This document shows, piece after piece, positions 16,913-52,405 of a stretch of 64,000 bases of DNA. Numbering within the stretch: the stretch's first letter is position 1; each line of letters begins with the position of its first letter. Below the pieces are notes generated by a model, which was given only the letters and a program-made list of their open reading frames with translations, did not search any database and had not been told where the DNA came from. Position numbers and translations under genes: made by a program. Source of the DNA: Escherichia phage anhysbys; the sequence record NC_052656.1. One strand, 5' to 3'.

Positions 16913-17317
16913 TTATTGAAGTTTAAGTGAACCACGAAGACGTTTCTCTTGCTGATCACGAATATATTGTGGAACCTCGTGAATTGAATCATTACCGTGC
17001 CTATTTTCAACAACTAAAGAGATAACTTGATAACCAAACTCTTCAGCAAGAGTTAGATAAGGTTTAAGTTCTTTCTCTGTGGTTGAAGTGTTAGAAACAA
17101 TAATCTTGTTAAGATTAGATGCCATAGCATCACGAACAATACTCTGACACCATGCGTGTGCTTTACCTACATTTTCTGGCTTCCAATCGTAAACACCACT
17201 TTCTGTATAATGATATTGATCTGCCTCACAGATAGGCCAATAACCTTCAGAAATAATTTCTGCTACCGTAGATTTACCAGCACCTGAAACGCCACGTAAA
17301 ATGATAAGTTGTTTCAT
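16913..17317 (-). CDS. P-loop polynucleotide 5'-kinase (Pnk kinase-domain-like)
   Basis: Walker A GVSGAGKST near N-terminus; 134 aa, size of T4 Pnk kinase domain; adjacent to RNA ligase. Confidence 0.6.
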   Translation of the reverse strand: MKQLIILRGVSGAGKSTVAEIISEGYWPICEADQYHYTESGVYDWKPENVGKAHAWCQSIVRDAMASNLNKIIVSNTSTTEKELKPYLTLAEEFGYQVISLVVENRHGNDSIHEVPQYIRDQQEKRLRGSLKLQ

Positions 17318-24477: not shown

Positions 24478-24749
24478 CCAACACAACATTAAGGGCACTG
24501 TGATTGATCGTCGTATCCTGTGCACAAGGTCTGTTCGAAAGACAGTGTTCTTAGTATTGTGTTGATCACACAAAGAGTCACCTGAAACTTGACCGGAGTA
24601 GGGTTGGATGGGGCAAAAGAAGAAGCGGCTCTCCCATCGACAGCAACGAAGAATAATATTTGACTTTGGTTTTGTATTATTTTAAGTTAGCTTACCGAAC
24701 GTAGGGCTAGTCACCCAATGGGATACTCGTCACTGTCCCACTCAATAAA

Positions 24750-24783
24750 ACTATTGACAACCAATAGTAAAATGTAGTATAGT
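24750..24783 (+). promoter_or_regulatory. promoter with conserved ACTATTGACAA -35 element
   Basis: TTGACA at 24754-24759, TATAGT 18 nt downstream; precedes tRNA-Gly. Confidence 0.55.
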
Positions 24784-24794
24784 AAAGATGTAGG

Positions 24795-24865
24795 GCGTTC
24801 TTGGTGTAGCGGTAGCATTCCGTCCTTCCAAGTCGGCGGCACGAGTTCGATCCTCGTAGAACGCT
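24795..24865 (+). tRNA. tRNA-Gly (anticodon TCC)
   Basis: acceptor GCGTTCT/AGAACGC, anticodon loop CTTCCAA, discriminator T, T-arm ACGAG-TTCGATC-CTCGT, CCA. Confidence 0.75.
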
Positions 24866-24966
24866 CCAAATTATTTAATAAAGGGTTGCCAGAAAACTTT
24901 CTCTTTTACTCATGGTTTTCTCCTTCTCTCACACCTCTTCTGGTTGCCCTTCATTAAATGATTTAT

Positions 24967-25039
24967 TGGTTTGTAGTGTAGTCCGGTAGCACACGACACT
25001 TTGACTGTCGTAGGTTTGGTTCAAATCCAGACAGACCAG
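24967..25039 (+). tRNA. tRNA-Gln (anticodon TTG)
   Basis: acceptor TGGTTTG/CAGACCA, anticodon arm CGACA-CTTTGAC-TGTCG, T-loop TTCAAAT, discriminator G, CCA. Confidence 0.8.
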
Positions 25040-25047
25040 CCATATAA

Positions 25048-25121
25048 CGGAATTTAGCTCAGTTTGGTAGAGCATACGCTTTGGGAGCGTAGGGTCGCAG
25101 GTTCGAATCCTGCAATTCCGA
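25048..25121 (+). tRNA. tRNA-Pro (anticodon TGG)
   Basis: acceptor CGGAATT/AATTCCG, D-arm GCTCAGTTTGGTAGAGC, anticodon loop TTTGGGA, T-arm GCAGG-TTCGAAT-CCTGC, CCA. Confidence 0.85.
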
Positions 25122-25130
25122 CCAATCAAA

Positions 25131-25201
25131 TGTTTCGTAGTTCAATGGTAGAACCCACGACTGATAATCGTGAGACACAAGTTCGATTCTTGTCGAAACA
25201 A
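25131..25201 (+). tRNA. tRNA-Ile (anticodon GAT)
   Basis: acceptor TGTTTCG/CGAAACA, anticodon arm CACGA-CTGATAA-TCGTG, T-arm ACAAG-TTCGATT-CTTGT, CCA. Confidence 0.8.
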
Positions 25202-25206
25202 CCAGT

Positions 25207-25276
25207 TTCCCGTTAGACTTACAGGATAAGAGTTCCACAACTTATTGTGATGCTGGTTCGAATCCAGCACGGGATA
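25207..25276 (+). ncRNA. tRNA-like element with 4-nt anticodon-position loop (pseudo-tRNA or structured RNA)
   Basis: perfect T-arm GCTGG-TTCGAAT-CCAGC and 6/7 acceptor pairing, but anticodon-position hairpin is CACAA-CTTA-TTGTG (tetraloop); no encoded CCA. Confidence 0.25.
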
Positions 25277-25282
25277 CATAAT

Positions 25283-25358
25283 AGCGGGATAGAGGAGTCT
25301 GGTCGTCCTCGCCAGTTTCATATGCTGGAGATCATCGGTTCAAATCCGATTCCCGCCT
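25283..25358 (+). tRNA. tRNA-Met (anticodon CAT), second copy; could be initiator or Ile2 type
   Basis: acceptor AGCGGGA/TCCCGCC with A1-C72 mismatch, D-arm GAGG...CCTC, anticodon loop TTCATAT, T-arm ATCGG-TTCAAAT-CCGAT, CCA. Confidence 0.7.
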
Positions 25359-25476
25359 CCAAATATCGCTTGCCAGCGGTATCTTTGAAGACCTTGCCTG
25401 GTTCCTTCTAAGATGGAGGGGTGCGACTCCTTAACGCACAATTATAATAAAGCATTTCAAATTAACAGTATTTATT

Positions 25477-30693: not shown

Positions 30694-31173
30694 ATGGAAC
30701 TCAATAAAGATACACTGTGGGAACTCTTCAAAACCTTCGCTGGTTTTAAAGAGAATTCTGAATCCCAACAAGATTCTATACCATCTCAAAAACCTGAAAC
30801 TCTAGTCAAACAAAATAAATTTGATGAAGAAAAGATGCAGGTTATTGAGGTCTTGTATTGTCCACCTGAAGAAGACGATCTCCACGGAGAGCGCATGTCT
30901 GATTTGGAAATCAGGAAGATGGTTGACAACTTCAATGAGAATATTACCAATATTAGCGGTAATCTTGGTCACATGAAGAACACCGATAAGTTTGCTCCAA
31001 TTAAAGCTTGGGTAAATGAAGTCGATTGTTACATTGGTGACGAACTCGTTGTGGAAGGAACTCCCCTCGTTAAAATCCAATTCAACGACCCTGAATTATA
31101 TCAAGCTCGTAAAGACGGCGTTCTTAAAGGTTTGAGTATAGGCGCAATGGGCGTTAAAGTCAAGAAGGACTAA
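30694..31173 (+). CDS. head morphogenesis protein (possible prohead protease, XkdF-like)
   Basis: position between portal and scaffold; GLSIGAMG motif; assignment weak. Confidence 0.35.
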   Translation: MELNKDTLWELFKTFAGFKENSESQQDSIPSQKPETLVKQNKFDEEKMQVIEVLYCPPEEDDLHGERMSDLEIRKMVDNFNENITNISGNLGHMKNTDKFAPIKAWVNEVDCYIGDELVVEGTPLVKIQFNDPELYQARKDGVLKGLSIGAMGVKVKKD

Positions 31174-31175
31174 TC

Positions 31176-32291
31176 GTGGCAAATACATATTTAACTAACG
31201 TAGACTTTTCAGGAAAAGCTACGGAAGAGTCACTAGGTGCTCATATTGCTTACACTTTTGATTTTCAAGGTGGAGCGGCATCTGGTTATAATACCCCCCT
31301 TTTATTTAAGTCAGACGGATCTCCAGACATAACTTTTGAAAAGTTAGAAGCTCTCACTAAAATGGGAGAAGATGTTACAGAGTTACGTAAAAGCTATATT
31401 CAACAAGTGATGGATCGCATTTCTGAAAAAGTGCGTGAAAAATTTGAAGCTGGTTGGGATTGGGTTTACGTTATTGATGCTGACTTCGATGCGAACGTTG
31501 CAATTTTCTGTTCAGATAACGGTATGTTCTCTGTTGGCTTTAAAGTTGACGGACTGAATGTTGAAGTTGAAGAGGTTGCTAAACCTGTTGTTCGTGTTAC
31601 TGATTATCAAGTTGTTGATGGTGATGTAATGATCTCCATTGATTTCTTTGAGGACGTTTTAGACGATGCTTTGAGTAATCTCGTTAAGAGTTCCTTGAAA
31701 CAAAGTCAAGTTAAAGATTATTTAGTGAAAGCTCACGCTAAAGCTAATACAAACTCTGTGGATGCAGAGGCTAACCCCGCAGGTGATAAATCTGCAAACA
31801 CAACTGGAATCAATAAAGGAGAAACCCCTTTGGAAAATATCAACAAAGAAGAATTCCTGAAATCTGCTGAATTCCAAGAACTGATGAAAGCACAGATCGC
31901 TGAAGCTGTAGAAAAAGCAGCAGCAGATGCACGTGCAGCCGCAGAACTTGAAGCACAGGAAAAAATCGCTAAGGCAGAACAGGAAGCAGAAGAACTTCGT
32001 AAAGCTGAACAAGCTCGTATCGAAGAAGAATATACAACTGTTGTTAAATCCTATTCTTTCGTAGAAGAAGACAAAGTTGAAGCTCTCGTTAAATATCTGG
32101 TAGACAATAAAGATATCGCTGAAACTATCGTCAAAGCATTCGAAAAAGCACGTGCAGAAGTGGACGCAGTTAAGAAAGAATTTGGAACAGAACGTGGTGT
32201 TGACGTGATCAATACTCAACCTGTAGCTAAATCTTCTTCTGAACTGATTAGTCAGAAAGCTGCTGAACTTAAAAAAGCCCAGAAACAATAA
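31176..32291 (+). CDS. scaffolding protein (putative)
   Basis: GTG start 2 nt after upstream stop; long Ala/Glu/Lys-rich coiled-coil C-terminal half; position before capsid genes. Confidence 0.45.
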   Translation: MANTYLTNVDFSGKATEESLGAHIAYTFDFQGGAASGYNTPLLFKSDGSPDITFEKLEALTKMGEDVTELRKSYIQQVMDRISEKVREKFEAGWDWVYVIDADFDANVAIFCSDNGMFSVGFKVDGLNVEVEEVAKPVVRVTDYQVVDGDVMISIDFFEDVLDDALSNLVKSSLKQSQVKDYLVKAHAKANTNSVDAEANPAGDKSANTTGINKGETPLENINKEEFLKSAEFQELMKAQIAEAVEKAAADARAAAELEAQEKIAKAEQEAEELRKAEQARIEEEYTTVVKSYSFVEEDKVEALVKYLVDNKDIAETIVKAFEKARAEVDAVKKEFGTERGVDVINTQPVAKSSSELISQKAAELKKAQKQ

Positions 32292-32310
32292 TCTTAGGAG
32301 ATTAAATTAA

Positions 32311-32709
32311 ATGGCTAAAGGAATTACTTTATCTAACTCTCGCCAGGAATTCGGACACCTGGTTCTGGGTGGAGTGTTTAGCTCTGACCTTGGACACTGT
32401 GTACGTGAAGTTAACCTGGTTAAAACAGCAACCATGAAAATTGGTTCTATCCTGAAAGCTGACAACACTGAAGCTGCTAAAGCTGAAGCTGCCGATGCTG
32501 CTAAAGTTCTGATTTGGACTGATGCTCTGTTCGGTATTGACGATGTAGCAGTAGGTGACACTTTCACCGCAGTTGTTGGCGTACGTGATCTTACTCTGAA
32601 CCGCTTTGCAGTATACTACAAAGATGGCTCCCTTGTAGATGAAGCTGGCGTAGCAGCACTGGAAACACATGATCTGAAACTGACCGAAAAAGTCGTTTTC
32701 ACTTCTTAA
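32311..32709 (+). CDS. head decoration protein (putative)
   Basis: 132 aa immediately upstream of the major capsid gene, same TAGGAGATTAA RBS and host-like codon usage. Confidence 0.4.
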   Translation: MAKGITLSNSRQEFGHLVLGGVFSSDLGHCVREVNLVKTATMKIGSILKADNTEAAKAEAADAAKVLIWTDALFGIDDVAVGDTFTAVVGVRDLTLNRFAVYYKDGSLVDEAGVAALETHDLKLTEKVVFTS

Positions 32710-32730
32710 TTTTAATAGGAGATTAATATA

Positions 32731-33732
32731 ATGCCAGCAGTAATTTTAGATCAGGTTGTAGATTTCAGCCCTATGATCGAACTTCAGGATTCCCCTGATA
32801 CACTGATTGCCAGCCTGAATCTGTTCAGTGTTGACTATCATTCAACTACCGCTATTGAAATCGGTAAAGAAAAAGCTGAAGATGCTCTGATCTCCGCTCG
32901 TGAGCGTGGTGGTGAGCGTAACTTCCTGAGCATGAAAAATCCAGAACTGAAAGCGTTCCGCATTCCGTTCTTCCCTCTGGATAAAAACATCAAAGCTCAA
33001 GATATTCAATCTTTCCGTAGCTTTGCAATGGCAGGAATCAATGACTCTCTGCGCACAGACGCTGAAGTTGTTAACCGCTATATGTCCCAGATTCTGCGTG
33101 ACGTAGCAAAAACCAAAGAGAAAATCTTTGCAGAAGCAGTTATGGGTCGTGCCTATAACGGCGTAGGTGGTGCAGCTAACTCTGCATACAACTGGTATAC
33201 AGAATGGGGTGCTACCCAGAAATCTGTTGCTGTAGACTTTGCTTCTACCACTGTTTCTCCAGCAGCCACTATCGAGAAAGAAGCTCGTGCTTACATCATC
33301 GATACTAAACAAGATGGCTCTACCGCTACTCGTATCGTAGCTCTGTGTTCTCGTGAATTTTTCGCATCTCTGGTTAACTCTCCATTTGTTCGCCAGGCAT
33401 ATCAGTATTTCCAGGGAACTCCTAACCTTCTGCGTGATCGCCTTAGCGGTAACATGGATGTTCAGGTGTTCGAATGGAACGGTGTAACTTACATTGAAGA
33501 TATCCACGGTAACATCCCTGCTGGTGAAGCATATGTTCTGCCTATGGGTATCGAAGGTATGTTCCAGGCGCACTACGCTCCTGCGGATACTCCAGAACTG
33601 GCTAACACCCAGGCTCGTGAACTGTATACCTTCATGATCAGCCAGCACCGCACTATTCAGCTTCAGTCTGAATTCTCGCTGCTCGCAGTTAACACCCGTC
33701 CAGAACTGGTAGTTAAACTGACTACGGCTTAA
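32731..33732 (+). CDS. major capsid protein
   Basis: 333 aa; strongly host-optimal codon usage (CTG/CGT/GGT); followed by strong terminator; lambda-like order portal-protease-scaffold-decoration-capsid. Confidence 0.7.
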   Translation: MPAVILDQVVDFSPMIELQDSPDTLIASLNLFSVDYHSTTAIEIGKEKAEDALISARERGGERNFLSMKNPELKAFRIPFFPLDKNIKAQDIQSFRSFAMAGINDSLRTDAEVVNRYMSQILRDVAKTKEKIFAEAVMGRAYNGVGGAANSAYNWYTEWGATQKSVAVDFASTTVSPAATIEKEARAYIIDTKQDGSTATRIVALCSREFFASLVNSPFVRQAYQYFQGTPNLLRDRLSGNMDVQVFEWNGVTYIEDIHGNIPAGEAYVLPMGIEGMFQAHYAPADTPELANTQARELYTFMISQHRTIQLQSEFSLLAVNTRPELVVKLTTA

Positions 33733-33751
33733 TAGAACTCTGTTAAGATTA

Positions 33752-33786
33752 GAGGCTCGTCCGTGATGGGCGAGCCTTTTCTGTTT
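33752..33786 (+). terminator. intrinsic terminator after major capsid gene
   Basis: hairpin AGGCTCG...CGAGCCT followed by TTTTCTGTTT. Confidence 0.65.
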
Positions 33787-33816
33787 ACAATAAGAGTTTA
33801 CAACGAGGAGATTGAT

Positions 33817-34161
33817 ATGTCAAACCCAGAATTGAAACGTTACTTTAGTTATCACGAAATGATTCGTGATTTCGAATCGCTTTCACCACTGATCGATGCT
33901 GATAAAACATTAGTATCTGCGCCACCAATGTCTTTCTATCTGAAAGATGGTCGTGTTGCATTAGGTGGAAACTTCATTCACTTCCTCACGCGTTTGAGAG
34001 AAGAAACAGGTATTCTTGTGCATCCTTTTGCAAGTGAAGAACACATGGGTTACTATCTTGTAAGTTACGAAGATTATGCACCTGTAAAAATCAAAGAAGA
34101 AGTTTTAAAAGTAGAAGCGGTAGACACTCCAGCTAAAAAACGTTCCCTTCGTAAAAAATAA
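33817..34161 (+). CDS. head-tail joining protein (putative)
   Basis: start moved to ATG 33817 (GAGGAG RBS) because the ORF-track start overlaps the terminator. Confidence 0.4.
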   Translation: MSNPELKRYFSYHEMIRDFESLSPLIDADKTLVSAPPMSFYLKDGRVALGGNFIHFLTRLREETGILVHPFASEEHMGYYLVSYEDYAPVKIKEEVLKVEAVDTPAKKRSLRKK

Positions 34162-36300: not shown

Positions 36301-36334
36301 ACTCATTGGAATTAAGTTTCTAACAGGAGCATAA

Positions 36335-37708
36335 ATGGCAACTTTTCGTGAAAAGGTAGCAACCGTAACTTTACTGTATGGTGCTACATCAATTCGTGAA
36401 ACCCAGTTCGATATTCCCCTGATCCTTACAGGTCAGAACGTAACTGGCGAAGCGATTCAATATTACTCTTCTTCCGATGCACTTTTGGAAGCAGGTTATG
36501 GATTAAATGATCCAGCGTATATTATGGCAGTCAAACTGTTTAACGGTTTGTTCCCACCAGATCAAGTCATGGTTGGTAAGCGTGAAGTTACAAACTTTAC
36601 TCTAACTCCAATCGTAGAAGATAGTGCAACTTACACAATTACCATCAAAAATGGTACCAAGAAAAAAGAATTTAAATTCATTGCTGATGACACTGCAACT
36701 GCACAAGAGATTGTAGTTGGTCTGACTGAAATGATCAATGCAGATCTTGTTTATGGCCCACTGTTTACAGTAGCTAACAACGGCGCTGCAATGACTTTCA
36801 CTCCAGTAGAAGGTAAGTTTGGTTCTATTGACAGCACAGGTTTCACTCAAGAAACTGTCTATGCTAATGCTATTACGGAAGATATTGCTGCTCTGCATGA
36901 TATTGATAGTAGCTGGTTCTGGACCCTTTCAGATTCCCATGAAACAGAAGATGTTCTAGCTTTGGCTGCATGGGTAGAAGAGAATGATAAAGTTTACTTC
37001 TTCTCTAGCTCTGAACCTGGAATTAAAACGAAAGCAGAAGATAACGTTCTGGAACGACTGAATGACCTCGGTTATAATAACACTTGCTTTGCTTTGTGGA
37101 TGACCGATGCAGATTCTGTATTCCCAGAAGCGGCAGTTGTTGGTGCAATCTGTTCTCGTCAACCTGGTTTAACTACTCTTCACGGTAAAACACTGGTAGG
37201 TGTAGAGATCGAGAAACTGGATCAGACTTCGGAAAACAATATTGTTCAACAGAACGGTAACATCTATCGTAAAGAGCATGGAACTCTGTTCTATCGTGAT
37301 GGATTGATGGTTAGCGGTTTCTTTGTTGACTATGTTGTTCATGCTTTGTGGTTTAAAGCTCGCACAGAAGAATCACTGTTTACACTGTTTAAACAACAGT
37401 CTATGCTGGGTGGTGGTGTTCGTGCTACTTCAAACGGTCTGGCTTTGATTCGACAAGCTGTTCTGGCTAACCCGATCCAAGTAGGTATCCTCAACGGTTC
37501 CATCGCTAATGAAGTTGTTACTTCTGAAGAGACTGGTTTGCGTGTCGATCTGAAACCTATTGTTTATATTCCTTCTCGTGCCGATATGACTGATGCGCAA
37601 ATCAATGCTCGTCTGGTCGATGGGATGAAGATTGAATATGTTTACGCTGGCTTCTTCCATTACGTTAAAGTTCAGGTCAACGTCCTGACTAACCGTACTG
37701 CAAACTAA
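36335..37708 (+). CDS. tail sheath protein (putative)
   Basis: 457 aa followed by a 159-aa tube-sized protein; host-like codon usage; terminator downstream. Confidence 0.55.
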   Translation: MATFREKVATVTLLYGATSIRETQFDIPLILTGQNVTGEAIQYYSSSDALLEAGYGLNDPAYIMAVKLFNGLFPPDQVMVGKREVTNFTLTPIVEDSATYTITIKNGTKKKEFKFIADDTATAQEIVVGLTEMINADLVYGPLFTVANNGAAMTFTPVEGKFGSIDSTGFTQETVYANAITEDIAALHDIDSSWFWTLSDSHETEDVLALAAWVEENDKVYFFSSSEPGIKTKAEDNVLERLNDLGYNNTCFALWMTDADSVFPEAAVVGAICSRQPGLTTLHGKTLVGVEIEKLDQTSENNIVQQNGNIYRKEHGTLFYRDGLMVSGFFVDYVVHALWFKARTEESLFTLFKQQSMLGGGVRATSNGLALIRQAVLANPIQVGILNGSIANEVVTSEETGLRVDLKPIVYIPSRADMTDAQINARLVDGMKIEYVYAGFFHYVKVQVNVLTNRTAN

Positions 37709-37754: not shown

Positions 37755-38234
37755 ATGGATAAAATGCTTACTGGCGTAATGGCCTACGACCCATCTCAAG
37801 TTATCCTTTCATTAGGTGGTTGGGAACCGTGGGGTTTTGCGGCTGATACTAAAATCGTTATTGCTAAATCTAACGATATTATCAACCCTTATTCAGGGAC
37901 TGATGGTGACGTTTCACTAGCTTTGAGTCGTAACCGTTTGGGAACACTCACAATGTCTTTGCAACGCACATCTCCAGCTAACGAAGTACTTGCAACATAT
38001 GCACAAACAATGTATTCTACTCGTCAAGTAGCATTCAGCGTTTACTTGGAAGACCCACGTGGCTATTACATTAGCACGATTGGATGGATTCAAAGTCAGC
38101 CTGAAGATACTATTGGCGAAATGATTACAGAGAACCAATGGGTTATTGGTCTTAAAGATGCAAGCCTTCTGCGTAATGAAGTTGGTGTAGGTTTGAGCAC
38201 CCTTAACTCAATCTCTGCTCTGACAATTCAATAA
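37755..38234 (+). CDS. tail tube protein (putative)
   Basis: 159 aa between sheath and chaperone genes. Confidence 0.5.
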   Translation: MDKMLTGVMAYDPSQVILSLGGWEPWGFAADTKIVIAKSNDIINPYSGTDGDVSLALSRNRLGTLTMSLQRTSPANEVLATYAQTMYSTRQVAFSVYLEDPRGYYISTIGWIQSQPEDTIGEMITENQWVIGLKDASLLRNEVGVGLSTLNSISALTIQ

Positions 38235-38241
38235 TAAATAA

Positions 38242-38262
38242 AGGGCAGAAATGCCCTTTTTA
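38242..38262 (+). terminator. intrinsic terminator
   Basis: AGGGCA-GAAA-TGCCCT followed by TTTTTAT. Confidence 0.7.
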
Positions 38263-50188: not shown

Positions 50189-52264
50189 ATGTCAACTACA
50201 ATTACTAATTTACCCGAAACATCAAAAGTTAATGATTCTGATTACCTGGTTTTAGACCAACCTGATAAGACTGTTAAAAGCACAGTTTCCAACTTTCTTA
50301 CTGACACTGGGGTGGTTTTAGCCACCCAGTTGAAAGATACAGATGGAGCAGATATGATCGGGGTTCCAACAACAGAAACTTCTTTGGGGGAATTGCTTTC
50401 ATCTGATGATATGGCCATCAAATATAGTTATGTCAACCCAACAATCAGTGAAAGGCTTGGGCGTGAAGGGGCGAAGGTTGTTTTGGTCGGCGACAGTCTG
50501 AGCAGTTTCTTCAACATAGATTCTGTAAACACAGCGTCTATCTTTGAGTCTTACCTGCGCCGCAAGATCATGGAATTCAACAGTACGGCGAAGTTCTATA
50601 ACAGAGCCATCGGCGGCAAGCGTTACTATGACTTGGGTAGAAATGAACCGCCTCTTAATGCTCTGAAGAGCGGATACCCTTGGTATACAGACACGTCCAA
50701 GCGTTGGATGACTTACTTGGACGATCTTAAACCAGATGTGATCTTCTTGGCCTTTGGTATGAACGATGGCGCTGGCTGGGACGTGGGTAACTTTCAACAA
50801 GATAACTTCTTCAAGATGATGGAAGAACTTAAGTCCATCAGTTCAAGCCCTGAGTTGGTGTTTTGTACTAATATTCTTCCTTCTACAACACATGTTGATA
50901 CCGCAACAGAAGACCAGCAGCAGGGGCGTGATGCGATGGCTGGCTGGACAAGAAGTTTTGCCAGAAAGGCGGGATATAGCTTCCTTGATCTTCATAGACG
51001 TTTCAAATGCTTACGTGATGGTGTAGACCCGTGCATGGCTAGTTATGCCCGTAAAACCATTCAGAAAGTGGTGTCGCTTCCGTATGTACACACCGCCCAG
51101 TGTGATATGTATTCGGCTCGGGTAATTTTGATCGATCCAGCCGTCGCGACCACAGGTATTAGATTCCAGTTGTCGAAGTATTCTAACAACTTCATGACCT
51201 TGAAATACGATACCACGACATCGCGCTGGATAACGACCGCATATACAGCTTCTTTCTCTTCCGTTGGCATCGCTGATCAGAGTTCTATGCCTGGCCCAGC
51301 CCCGGCTGAGGGAACAGAGATATACTTCACCATGAACGGTGACGTTGTCGTAATAACCATCGGCATCAACACATATCCGGTGTTCAGCCGTAATATTGTG
51401 CGCTTCGGTGGTAAATTCTTCCCTCAAATCGGCGGAACTGGTGATATTCGGATTGACATGATTGAGGGTACACCTATCCCTGTTAAATCAGAGTTGACGG
51501 ATTATGATTGCTACAACACTGACGGCGATGGCGGGAATGGCATCAACCACCCAACAGCCAAAGCGAGTTCCCGAATTTATACTCGCGTTGTTGACGACTG
51601 GTTCAGTATGTTTGCTGGGTCTGTTAGTTCCAGAAAGCAGGTGCTGGACATTGACTTTGTCAACGGCACTGTTGTGGTGAGAAACCCGTATAGCCCAGAA
51701 CTATCTTGTGAAGACAAAATCAGCGCCGCCCTGACTTTTATCAACGGATCACTCGCATACCAACGCGACGCTCAGGGACGTGTCATTGGAGCGGTGTTTG
51801 GGGCTACGAACAGAGCGTATGTTGACCAGGCTTTCTTCAATGCTTATGCGGGGAATTACAGCCAGCTCACATTTGAAGTAGAGTTCGTTGCCCCGAGCGC
51901 CCAGGCATACATCTGCACGTTCGGGGAAAACACCACAAGTGACCGAATCATAGCTCAGGTCACAAGTGATTTACGCCCAAGAATCACGGCAGCCGTGGCA
52001 TCACAAGCCAGCGACCTTTTCGGTTCAGCTTCGTTCCCATTTGTTGCTGGACGGAAATACGCTTTGAAATTCTCTTTAGATTGTGAGAATTCGGTCGCGC
52101 AGATGTGGGGGCAGAACAACTCCGCGCGAGGTAACATCAACGTCACCCCTATAACCGCCATATCTCCGGCGACGCTATCCAAGCTGAAACTTGGTTATGC
52201 GTCAACTGGAACATTTGGTGTAGATGTCGTGGTTTCAAGAATCAGAGTCTGGTTCTCCAACTGA
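50189..52264 (+). CDS. tail fibre/spike with SGNH (GDSL) hydrolase domain (candidate surface-polysaccharide esterase/deacetylase)
   Basis: 691 aa; block I VVLVGDSLSSFF, block III GMNDGAGW; AT-rich N-terminal ~80 codons, GC-rich remainder. Confidence 0.6.
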   Translation: MSTTITNLPETSKVNDSDYLVLDQPDKTVKSTVSNFLTDTGVVLATQLKDTDGADMIGVPTTETSLGELLSSDDMAIKYSYVNPTISERLGREGAKVVLVGDSLSSFFNIDSVNTASIFESYLRRKIMEFNSTAKFYNRAIGGKRYYDLGRNEPPLNALKSGYPWYTDTSKRWMTYLDDLKPDVIFLAFGMNDGAGWDVGNFQQDNFFKMMEELKSISSSPELVFCTNILPSTTHVDTATEDQQQGRDAMAGWTRSFARKAGYSFLDLHRRFKCLRDGVDPCMASYARKTIQKVVSLPYVHTAQCDMYSARVILIDPAVATTGIRFQLSKYSNNFMTLKYDTTTSRWITTAYTASFSSVGIADQSSMPGPAPAEGTEIYFTMNGDVVVITIGINTYPVFSRNIVRFGGKFFPQIGGTGDIRIDMIEGTPIPVKSELTDYDCYNTDGDGGNGINHPTAKASSRIYTRVVDDWFSMFAGSVSSRKQVLDIDFVNGTVVVRNPYSPELSCEDKISAALTFINGSLAYQRDAQGRVIGAVFGATNRAYVDQAFFNAYAGNYSQLTFEVEFVAPSAQAYICTFGENTTSDRIIAQVTSDLRPRITAAVASQASDLFGSASFPFVAGRKYALKFSLDCENSVAQMWGQNNSARGNINVTPITAISPATLSKLKLGYASTGTFGVDVVVSRIRVWFSN

Positions 52265-52276
52265 CGGAGTCTTTAA

Positions 52277-52405
52277 TGAATATTGACATATCTCCTATTC
52301 TTCACACCCTGGTCGCTACCACCCTGCAAGCAATTGCGGGGTTACTCCTGGGAGACTGGGTGATCGGAGCAGTGATGGGTTGTACGTTCTTCGCCGCCCT
52401 TTAAT
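52277..52405 (+). CDS. small hydrophobic peptide (42 aa), GC-rich
   Basis: ATG with GGAG 8 nt upstream; single predicted TM helix; GC-rich codons unlike surrounding phage genes. Confidence 0.3.

Follow-up and report, generated by a model that had tools for sequence, protein, structure and literature searches.

The genes for the head decoration protein, the major capsid protein (MCP) and the tail sheath protein of Escherichia phage anhysbys (NC_052656.1) differ sharply from their neighbours in codon usage, and this shift is very probably explained by translational selection, which would act on a small set of phage genes with products required in the greatest amounts. The effect is real but well known, a textbook case of such selection in the structural genes of phages. 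The analysis covered a window of 64,000 nucleotides (the whole stretch of phage DNA examined) and followed an earlier note on the same DNA, which had proposed that the three genes use codons typical of highly expressed enterobacterial genes, either through selection for extreme expression or because the capsid module has an evolutionary origin of its own.

Phage and gene identities

The window belongs to a phAPEC8-like E. coli myovirus (Phapecoctavirus), with the flagged decoration-capsid region being 99.9% identical to that of phage ETEC-TG. Its relatives among the Stephanstirmvirinae and Vequintavirinae include phages of Klebsiella, Erwinia and Vibrio. The genes for the decoration protein, MCP and sheath are exact ORFs (Table 1), and PHROGs, Pfam and the phi92 structure leave no ambiguity as to protein identities. 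The MCP matches PF03864 over its full length (residues 14-331) with 126.6 bits, against a cut-off (the Pfam gathering score) of 22.9, and has an HK97 fold of the lambda gpE type, which has been solved for its phi92 orthologue. For the sheath protein, the phrog_205 profile likewise spans the full length (residues 1-456), and the protein is 77% identical to phi92 gp130, itself modelled as the sheath by cryo-EM. The tube protein shares 44% identity with the protein annotated as tube in Vequintavirus AlexBoehm, and the probable scaffold gene is syntenic with that of AlexBoehm (25% identity, E=9e-5). Opposite-strand ORFs within the capsid and decoration genes were weighed and rejected as genes.

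The cryo-EM structure of phi92 gives 780 copies of gp123 and 775 of gp124 (T=13) per virion, together with 144 copies each of the sheath gp130 and the tube gp131 (PMC13450770). Virion copy numbers used here for anhysbys are the phi92 values carried over by orthology.

Table 1. Genes and expression signals discussed in the text, in positions of the window
Feature	Position	Strand	Basis and remarks
tRNA array, 11 genes	23439..25361	+	ARAGORN 10; Rfam 11, the extra one at 24136-24220
Probable head scaffold gene	31176..32291	+	Position and annotation; phi92 gp122 "potential scaffold"
Shine-Dalgarno AGGAG	32296..32300	+	10 nt 5' of decoration start; phi92 annotates AGGAG likewise
Head decoration/cement protein gene	32311..32709	+	ORF; phrog_2680 head decoration, E=8e-44; orthologue of phi92 gp123
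Shine-Dalgarno AGGAG	32717..32721	+	9 nt 5' of capsid start; phi92 annotation agrees
Major capsid protein (MCP) gene	32731..33732	+	Pfam PF03864 (Phage_cap_E), E=1e-36; phrog_29; orthologue of phi92 gp124
Intrinsic-terminator-like hairpin	33751..33779	+	Terminator scan; stem of 12-13 bp followed by T tract; begins 19 nt past capsid stop
Shine-Dalgarno AGGAG	36325..36329	+	5 nt 5' of sheath start; phi92 AGGAG precedes gp130
Tail sheath gene	36335..37708	+	phrog_205, E=3e-100; orthologue of phi92 gp130
Tail tube gene	37755..38234	+	phrog_280; orthologue of phi92 gp131
Bidirectional terminator-like hairpin	38240..38259	.	Just past tube gene; terminator scan, both strands

Size and character of the codon shift

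The codon adaptation index (CAI) was calculated with the Sharp-Li E. coli weights, with a cross-check limited to weights from two MG1655 genes, fusA and tufA; the two sets of weights correlate with r=0.96 and give an identical gene ranking. Each gene was compared with two null models, the first consisting of 300 synonymous reshuffles with its amino acids kept and the second of 500 draws with both amino acids and GC3 fixed.

CAI is 0.569 for the decoration gene, 0.570 for the MCP gene and 0.417 for the sheath gene, with a median of 0.259 (SD 0.079) for the 87 ORFs of the window, and the MCP gene is the strongest codon outlier of all. The bias is independent of amino acids and GC3, as the respective z scores of the three genes are 8.5, 14.7 and 8.4 under the amino-acid-matched null and 5.6, 9.0 and 6.6 when GC3 is also fixed, none of the 500 draws attaining the observed CAI. 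The use of highly-expressed-type codons by these genes is therefore confirmed. The scaffold gene (CAI 0.426, z 3.9 under the amino-acid null) and the tube gene (CAI 0.318, z 3.3), which the earlier note had missed, share the trend; with GC3 fixed, the scaffold score drops below 3 and the tube gene does not reach |z|>=3.

At the level of single codons, leucine in the three genes is encoded by CTG in 61% of cases against 13% in the rest (p=2e-21), and by TTA in 6% against 27%. AGA is absent from their 36 arginine codons (20% in the rest), as is AGG (7% in the rest), and ATA does not occur among their 55 isoleucine codons (19% in the rest), while CGT rises to 69% from 48% and GGT to 67% from 50%. 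The codons named in the earlier note as favoured (CTG, CGT, GGT) or avoided (TTA, AGA, ATA) thus behave as described, with the exception of AAA, for which the increase (88% against 74%) is merely marginal (p=0.05). Fisher tests by amino-acid family reached significance for Leu, Arg, Ile, Thr, Asn, Gln, Phe and Ser. No shift was seen in the three genes for the codons of Pro, Asp, Tyr and His, CCG being essentially unused.

It could be argued that such values are an artefact of amino-acid composition, of gene length or of chance among 87 ORFs, given that the capsid proteins have an unusual amino-acid make-up (GC1 0.58-0.63 compared to 0.49 elsewhere) and that CAI is noisy for short genes. However, both nulls retain the amino acids of each gene, eight amino-acid families are individually significant and the bias is replicated in two further genomes, those of phi92 and AlexBoehm. 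The randomisation tests refute this explanation, whose probability we regard as negligible.

The shift is also apparent when no host reference is applied. In a principal component analysis of RSCU values, the first axis places the MCP gene first, with the decoration, sheath and tube genes making up the rest of the top four, the tube gene being fourth. Its positive loadings include CGT, CTG and GCT and its negative ones AGA, TTA and ATA, and the axis follows E. coli CAI (r=0.84) far more closely than GC3 (0.21).

GC3 itself is 0.33 in the decoration gene, 0.41 in the MCP gene and 0.32 in the sheath gene, with 0.295 elsewhere. The earlier note had treated CAI and GC3 together as the values that should set these genes apart from the genome average; CAI does so, but GC3 hardly differs and is for this reason ill-suited as a discriminator here. 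The third-position change is chiefly from A to C, and the favoured codons comprise both T-ending (CGT, GGT, GCT, ACT) and C- or G-ending ones (CTG, AAC, ATC, TTC, CAG), a mix which fits tRNA matching over a shift in base composition. The description of the usage as "host-optimal" is an overstatement, as E. coli fusA and tufA reach CAI values of 0.74 and 0.82, above those of the three phage genes (0.57 or less), and the host adaptation of the three genes is partial.

Relation to virion copy number

CAI is ordinary for the portal, terminase and protease genes and for the neck genes which lie between capsid and sheath, and the genes of low-copy virion proteins (portal, neck, baseplate and fibre) do not exceed the genome average. 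Across 13 proteins, with copies taken from phi92 by orthology, CAI and log10 virion copy number are correlated (r=0.93), as are the z score and copy number (Spearman 0.74, p=0.004). The CAI order follows the copies, namely 775 and 780, then 144, then 12 or fewer. The tube and sheath proteins are present in equal numbers (144), yet the bias of the tube gene is much weaker. The phage offers a clean quantitative case in which codon adaptation scales with copy number over a range of about 250-fold (3 to 780 per virion).

With the copy numbers obtained in this manner from phi92, we infer that expression level is the cause of the bias and that the return is a gain in translation speed or efficiency. 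The MCP, decoration, sheath, tube and scaffold genes would use the codons of the most abundant E. coli tRNAs (CTG, CGT, GGT, GCT, ACT/ACC, AAC, ATC, TTC and CAG) and shun the rare AGA, AGG, ATA and TTA, which may result in quicker elongation and fewer ribosomes being occupied as synthesis surges late in infection. The remaining genome would drift under an AT-rich mutational bias, relying in part on the tRNAs of the phage itself.

Conservation in relatives and selection at synonymous sites

The bias is conserved in related phages. In phi92, the orthologues have CAI values of 0.578 (decoration), 0.587 (MCP), 0.409 (sheath), 0.361 (tube) and 0.437 (scaffold), and CAI in anhysbys and phi92 correlates with a Spearman coefficient of 0.86, even though neighbouring genes have a dS of about 1.7 between the two phages and are near synonymous saturation. 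In the Vequintavirus AlexBoehm, the corresponding values are 0.631 for the MCP, 0.469 for the decoration, 0.475 for the sheath, 0.50 for the tube and 0.436 for the scaffold gene, with most other genes in the range of 0.19-0.34, an exception being the prohead protease (0.465).

When compared to phi92, dS is reduced in the decoration (0.52), MCP (0.76) and scaffold (0.88) genes and is only marginally under that of the neighbours in the sheath gene (1.42). Genes at 16913-18803 also have a low dS, with ordinary CAI, meaning that low dS is insufficient as proof, and a test comparing the conservation of optimal and non-optimal codons was added. At conserved residues of the scaffold, decoration, MCP, sheath and tube proteins, optimal codons were kept in 70% of cases and non-optimal codons in 50% (OR 2.3, p=1e-11), whereas for the other late genes the figures are 54% and 53% (p=0.69). 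Purifying selection thus acts on synonymous sites of the high-CAI genes, with the sheath gene being less clear by dS.

The alternative offered by the earlier note, a separate evolutionary origin, would mean that the capsid (and sheath) genes were gained horizontally from a phage or host lineage whose codon usage resembles that of E. coli, and that they are still to drift towards the composition of the genome. Phage genomes are often mosaic, the CAI of these genes is sharply unlike that of their neighbours and GC content is a little higher at 33-34 kb (0.454). However, the bias is distributed gene by gene, occurring in the decoration and MCP genes and later in the sheath and tube genes with ordinary genes between, composition is not shifted as a block, and the portal, terminase and protease of the head module are unaffected. 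GC3 moves only from 0.295 to about 0.32-0.41 and the signal survives its fixing. Both phi92 and AlexBoehm have the same gene order as anhysbys, and the bias falls on the same genes in each of the three lineages. In pairwise comparisons, the identity of the capsid protein to its phi92 counterpart (89%) is near that of the portal (83%) and terminase (86%), which also holds with respect to AlexBoehm (42%, 43% and 40%, respectively). A plausible foreign segment at 50189-52264 shows the opposite signature, having a GC3 of 0.50 and an unshifted CAI (z -0.2). A separate origin of the capsid module is largely refuted by these comparisons and in our opinion very improbable. Selection for extreme expression is, by contrast, upheld by the bias in orthologues, the conservation of optimal codons, the reduced dS and the scaling of CAI with virion copies. 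The case shows that a local codon anomaly should be equated with horizontal transfer only when divergence, GC3 and synteny are out of line as well.

Ribosome-binding sites, terminators and promoters

Each of the three genes is preceded by an AGGAG Shine-Dalgarno sequence, and the context of that of the decoration gene, TAGGAGATTAA, is common to the capsid gene too. The hairpin following the capsid gene has a predicted minimum free energy of -28.5 kcal/mol (z -5.7), with none of 200 shuffles folding equally well, and a different GC-rich hairpin with a T tract occupies the equivalent position in phi92 and AlexBoehm. A sigma-70 promoter scan gave 28 sites compared to 32 expected from shuffles, and no late promoter could be named from it. 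The AGGAG sites and the putative post-capsid terminator would fit a short and very abundant decoration-capsid message.

Phage tRNAs and possible non-decoding selection

The anticodons of the phage tRNA array include TCT (AGA), TGT (ACA), TCC (GGA), TTG (CAA) and TGG (CCA). Of these five codons, four are under-represented in the high-copy genes and find their greatest use among the low-copy late ones. Per 1000 codons, those cognate to phage U34 tRNAs number 55 in high-copy genes, 109 in the remaining late genes and 79 in genes of the minus strand, with AGA shares of 0%, 25% and 12%, respectively. For proline, the high-copy genes use CCA and CCT and not the host optimum CCG, a tRNA-Pro(TGG) being phage-encoded. 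The rare codons that remain cluster near 5' ends, with five of the eight in the decoration gene falling within its first 28 codons.

These three features, namely the scarcity of phage U34-tRNA codons in the high-copy genes, the choice of proline codons and the 5' position of rare codons, could also be read as selection at synonymous positions in which decoding speed is not the target, but rather mRNA stability or structure, avoidance of codons with tRNAs that host anticodon nucleases attack, or independence of the most critical proteins from phage tRNAs. Against this, the favoured codons match those of highly expressed E. coli genes family by family and the bias scales with copy number, as is predicted by selection for decoding efficiency. 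We consider such pressures improbable as the source of the shift; they could accompany translational selection instead of replacing it.

Alongside translational selection on the high-copy genes, a two-tier translation economy may tentatively be proposed, whereby virion proteins of very high copy number depend nearly entirely on host tRNAs, with phage-tRNA codons being used most heavily by the low-copy late genes. Should selection maintain this partition, the tRNA array would not serve to boost capsid output; it would sustain the AT-rich low-copy genes, or shield them whenever host tRNAs run short or are cleaved. A pattern resembling it has been described for T4, and the reading is hence only modestly new. 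Cowe and Sharp in 1991 and Kunisawa in 1992 are said to have described the use of host tRNAs alongside phage-encoded ones in T4-type phages. In rV5, a comparison of tRNAs and codons found tRNAs for codons that the phage uses often and E. coli rarely (PMC3606486). Like the T4-type phages and rV5, anhysbys is a large AT-rich myovirus with tRNAs for AGA, ACA, CCA and others, and as in the T4-type phages its most abundant late proteins still follow host-optimal usage. A difference to the T4-type systems is that the partition in anhysbys, with phage-tRNA codons at their highest in low-copy late genes and at their lowest in capsid and sheath, is one of codon counts by gene class.

Comparison with other phages and wider relevance

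Classic cases of host-preferred codons in phages are the head and tail genes of lambda, gene 10 of T7 and gene 23 of T4. A literature search for codon usage in phAPEC8-like phages found no specific study, and to our knowledge the group is absent from the data set which Lucks and colleagues assembled in 2008. That study documented the phenomenon for 74 phages, finding the CAI of head and tail genes to be significantly above that of non-structural genes with amino acids and GC3 controlled, and interpreted it as translational selection on high-copy proteins (Lucks, Nelson, Kudla and Plotkin, 2008; PMC2266997). The randomisation logic applied to anhysbys is alike and so is the outcome, with the difference that the effect is restricted to the four or five proteins of highest copy number and does not extend to the structural class. 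The finding raises no new question.

The codon signature supports E. coli or its close relatives as the host of the phage, and the virion proteins of greatest abundance can be picked out from it with no recourse to proteomics. It is also of relevance to phage engineering, both for payloads placed after the capsid gene and for capsid recoding as a means of attenuation. In T7, recoding of the major capsid gene with 182 suboptimal codons is reported to have attenuated the virus (PMC5592923). The gene is of the same kind, encoding the major capsid protein of a lytic coliphage, and the experiment is one on T7.

Genome context of the flagged genes

The region of phage anhysbys containing the flagged genes shares 99.9% identity with Escherichia phage ETEC-TG and at least 99% identity with 56 phAPEC8-like phages (Phapecoctavirus, Stephanstirmvirinae), which have genomes of ~150 kb and derive overwhelmingly from E. 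coli. A second group, including phi92 (Justusliebigvirus), shows ~84% identity to it. The boundaries that the earlier note gave for the head decoration (cement), major capsid and sheath genes coincide exactly with ORFs.

Features of the window (CAI, E. coli codon adaptation index; z, standard deviations above a synonymous-reshuffle null with amino acids fixed / with GC3, third-position GC, fixed too)
Feature	Position	Strand	CAI	z	Remarks
Replication and nucleotide-metabolism genes	1-22 kb	-
ATPase, RNA ligase-like and phosphoesterase genes	16913-18803	-	ordinary
tRNA array	23.4-25.4 kb
Eleventh tRNA	24136-24220	+			Rfam, 39 bits; not called by ARAGORN
One of two tRNA-Met(CAT) called by ARAGORN	25283-25361				79 nt; anticodon position unusual
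Terminase, portal, protease, scaffold, decoration, capsid, neck, sheath, tube, tape measure, baseplate and fibre genes	from 26.8 kb	+
Prohead protease gene	30694-31173	+
Scaffold gene	31176-32291	+	0.426
Antisense ORFs	32307-32567, 32329-32670	-
Decoration gene	32311-32709	+	0.569	8.5 / 5.6	phrog_2680
Major capsid gene	32731-33732	+	0.570	14.7 / 9.0	Pfam Phage_cap_E, phrog_29
Antisense ORF within capsid gene	32842-33648	-			268 aa
Post-capsid hairpin	33751-33779
Mechanical ORF	33763-34161	+			GTG start inside post-capsid hairpin
Sheath gene	36335-37708	+	0.417	8.4 / 6.6	phrog_205
Tube gene	37755-38234	+	0.318
Palindromic hairpin AAAGGGCAGAAATGCCCTTT	38240-38259				T runs flanking on both strands; directly 3' of tube gene
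GDSL-esterase fibre gene	50189-52264	+			GDSL/SGNH esterase domain PF13472

ETEC-TG and phi92 both label the gene at 30694-31173 as "DNA methyltransferase", a name that came from phrog_1530. This is probably a mis-annotation, judging from matches to Pfam Peptidase_S78_2 (XkdF-type prohead serine protease; 44.9 bits, cut-off 24) and phrog_3017 (head maturation protease) and from 39% identity to the syntenic, annotated prohead protease of the Vequintavirus AlexBoehm.

Codon usage of the decoration, capsid and sheath genes

CAI was calculated for 87 non-overlapping ORFs, called with a simple ORF rule on the coding strand of each window half, using Sharp-Li weights validated on only two genes, MG1655 fusA and tufA (r=0.96). 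The median was 0.259 (SD 0.079), on a scale where E. coli fusA scores 0.74 and tufA 0.82. The shift to host-optimal codons that the earlier note had read in the decoration, capsid and sheath genes was confirmed by CAI, null tests and codon counts. With GC3 also fixed, the observed CAI was reached in 0/500 draws for each of the three, and no z above 3.5 was found among the remaining window ORFs. Weights from fusA and tufA only gave 0.511, 0.493 and 0.341 respectively, with ranking unchanged, and the trend extends to the scaffold and tube genes. While CAI differs clearly, GC3 barely does (decoration 0.33, capsid 0.41 and sheath 0.32 vs 0.295 elsewhere); the third position changes mainly from A to C with T constant, and GC3 is the wrong discriminator for this shift.

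As for individual codons, CTG makes up 61% of leucine codons in the three genes and 13% elsewhere (p=2e-21), with TTA at 6 and 27%. AGA (0/36 vs 20% elsewhere), AGG (0 vs 7%) and ATA (0/55 vs 19%) are absent, and CGT (69 vs 48%) and GGT (67 vs 50%) are favored as claimed; AAA follows in direction (88 vs 74%) but only marginally. Also raised are ACT+ACC (76 vs 46%), AAC (72 vs 45%), CAG (61 vs 30%), TTC (62 vs 38%) and ATC (47 vs 28%), with no shift between the three genes and the rest for Pro, Asp, Tyr and His codons. In a reference-free principal component analysis of RSCU in 50 longer genes, axis 1 (20% of variance) opposes CGT, CTG and GCT to AGA, TTA and ATA, correlates with E. coli CAI (r 0.84) more than with GC3 (r 0.21), and places the capsid, decoration, sheath and tube genes highest.

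Rare codons are concentrated at the 5' ends of the optimized genes (32311-32400, 32731-32790): 5/8 decoration codons of w<0.05 fall within the first 28, and the sole TTA is codon 7 of the decoration gene and codon 6 of the capsid gene. Such clustering would agree with the preference, already known, for gene starts that are AT-rich and weakly structured. The antisense ORF within the capsid gene lines up with the sense codon boundaries ((33648-32730)/3 = 306) and was rejected as a gene; it is a by-product of codon bias, its length arising because TTA, CTA and TCA, the antisense stops, are almost absent from the sense codons (1, 0 and 1).

Selection or a separate origin

The earlier note had left two explanations, selection for extreme expression or a separate evolutionary origin of the capsid module. 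The bias goes gene by gene and is not modular: the terminase (CAI 0.256), portal (0.249) and protease (0.298) genes are ordinary, and so are the five ORFs that separate the capsid gene from the sheath gene (0.19-0.33). Nor is there a sign of a differing history for the capsid protein, its pairwise identity to phi92 (89%) resembling that of terminase (86%), portal (83%) and tube (92%), and likewise to AlexBoehm (42% against 40, 43 and 44%). A plausibly foreign gene, that of the GDSL-esterase fibre, shows the opposite signature (GC3 0.50, CAI z -0.2). On these sequence comparisons, a separate origin is rejected.

The fibre gene, especially 51000-52300, has a local GC of 0.49 (~0.38 for the window) without CAI excess. 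It sits where phi92 has the endosialidase tailspike gp143, and no orthologue was found in the window/phi92 comparison. Probably this gene, for a receptor-binding or depolymerase fibre, has been exchanged.

phi92 shares the bias; its orthologue CAI is 0.578 for decoration, 0.587 for capsid, 0.409 for sheath, 0.437 for scaffold and 0.361 for tube (Spearman 0.86, window vs phi92), and adjoining genes are near synonymous saturation (synonymous divergence, dS, ~1.7). In AlexBoehm gene order is identical and the same positions are elevated (capsid 0.631, tube 0.50, sheath 0.475, decoration 0.469, scaffold 0.436); most other genes lie at 0.19-0.34, the prohead protease (0.465) being an exception.

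Synonymous sites are constrained, with dS to phi92 of 0.52 for decoration, 0.76 for capsid and 0.88 for scaffold. Where the window and phi92 encode the same residue, the five high-CAI genes pooled (scaffold, decoration, capsid, sheath, tube) keep 70% of optimal and 50% of non-optimal codons (p=1e-11), against 54 and 53% in the remaining late genes, which excludes recent recombination as the cause of the low dS. Low dS to phi92 is also seen at 16913-18803 (0.56-0.70, most genes ~1.7; protein identity 84-93%). With CAI ordinary there, this is what would be expected if the two genera had recombined relatively recently, and not from codon selection.

Codon adaptation also follows virion copy number. 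The cryo-EM structure of phi92 contains 775 capsid and 780 cement proteins, 144 copies each of sheath and tube, 12 each of portal and adaptor, 6 each of stopper, terminator and two initiators, and 3 each of tape measure, hub and spike (PMC13450770). With these numbers transferred by orthology to the window genes, log10 copy number is correlated with CAI (r=0.93) and copy number with z (Spearman 0.74, p=0.004). Gene-specific bias, orthologue conservation, synonymous constraint, the relation to copy number and the lack of signs of a differing history together support translational selection for extreme expression.

The bias adds one more case to a rule already known, and earlier studies of lambda, T7 and T4 reportedly reached the same conclusion as Lucks et al. 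In 74 phages, head and tail genes were enriched in host-preferred codons with amino acids and GC3 controlled, which was ascribed to translational selection (Lucks et al., 2008; PMC2266997), and the same holds here for decoration, capsid and sheath under both controls. Experimental deoptimization of the T7 capsid gene is reported to have attenuated the recoded strain (PMC5592923). A literature search found no codon-usage study specific to phAPEC8-like phages.

Expression signals and tRNA genes

Most likely, the genes of the highest-copy virion proteins use codons that abundant E. coli tRNAs decode and shun rare ones, which would maximize elongation rate per ribosome late in infection. Ribosome-binding contexts and a terminator-like hairpin fit with this mechanism: the decoration and capsid genes share TAGGAGATTAA 5' of ATG, the sheath gene has AGGAG, and 19 nt past the capsid stop lies a GC-rich hairpin of 12-13 bp with a T tract (-28.5 kcal/mol, z -5.7). 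In phi92 and AlexBoehm the equivalent position is taken by other hairpins, also with T tracts. These signals suggest a short, abundant decoration-capsid transcript, and the hairpin following the tube gene could be a second terminator closing a sheath-tube unit. A sigma-70 promoter scan of the window identified no late promoter. For the mechanical ORF beginning within the post-capsid hairpin, a more plausible start is the one that ETEC-TG annotates, which maps to ~33817 and lies beyond the hairpin.

In the rV5 genome, phage tRNAs match codons frequent in the phage and rare in the host (PMC3606486). Anticodons of the phage tRNAs here cover AGA, ACA, GGA, CAA and CCA, among others. These five codons are scarcest in decoration, capsid and sheath (55 per 1000 codons, vs 109 in other late genes and 79 in minus-strand genes), and the tRNAs therefore appear, on a codon count rather than a demonstrated mechanism, to serve the AT-rich bulk of the genome and not the capsid. 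A selected partition between high-copy genes dependent on host tRNAs and low-copy late genes dependent on phage tRNAs is conceivable but rather doubtful. Either of the two tRNA-Met(CAT) genes may in fact encode an Ile(lysidine) tRNA, which would read ATA. The eleventh tRNA is the positional counterpart of a tRNA-Tyr annotated in ETEC-TG.
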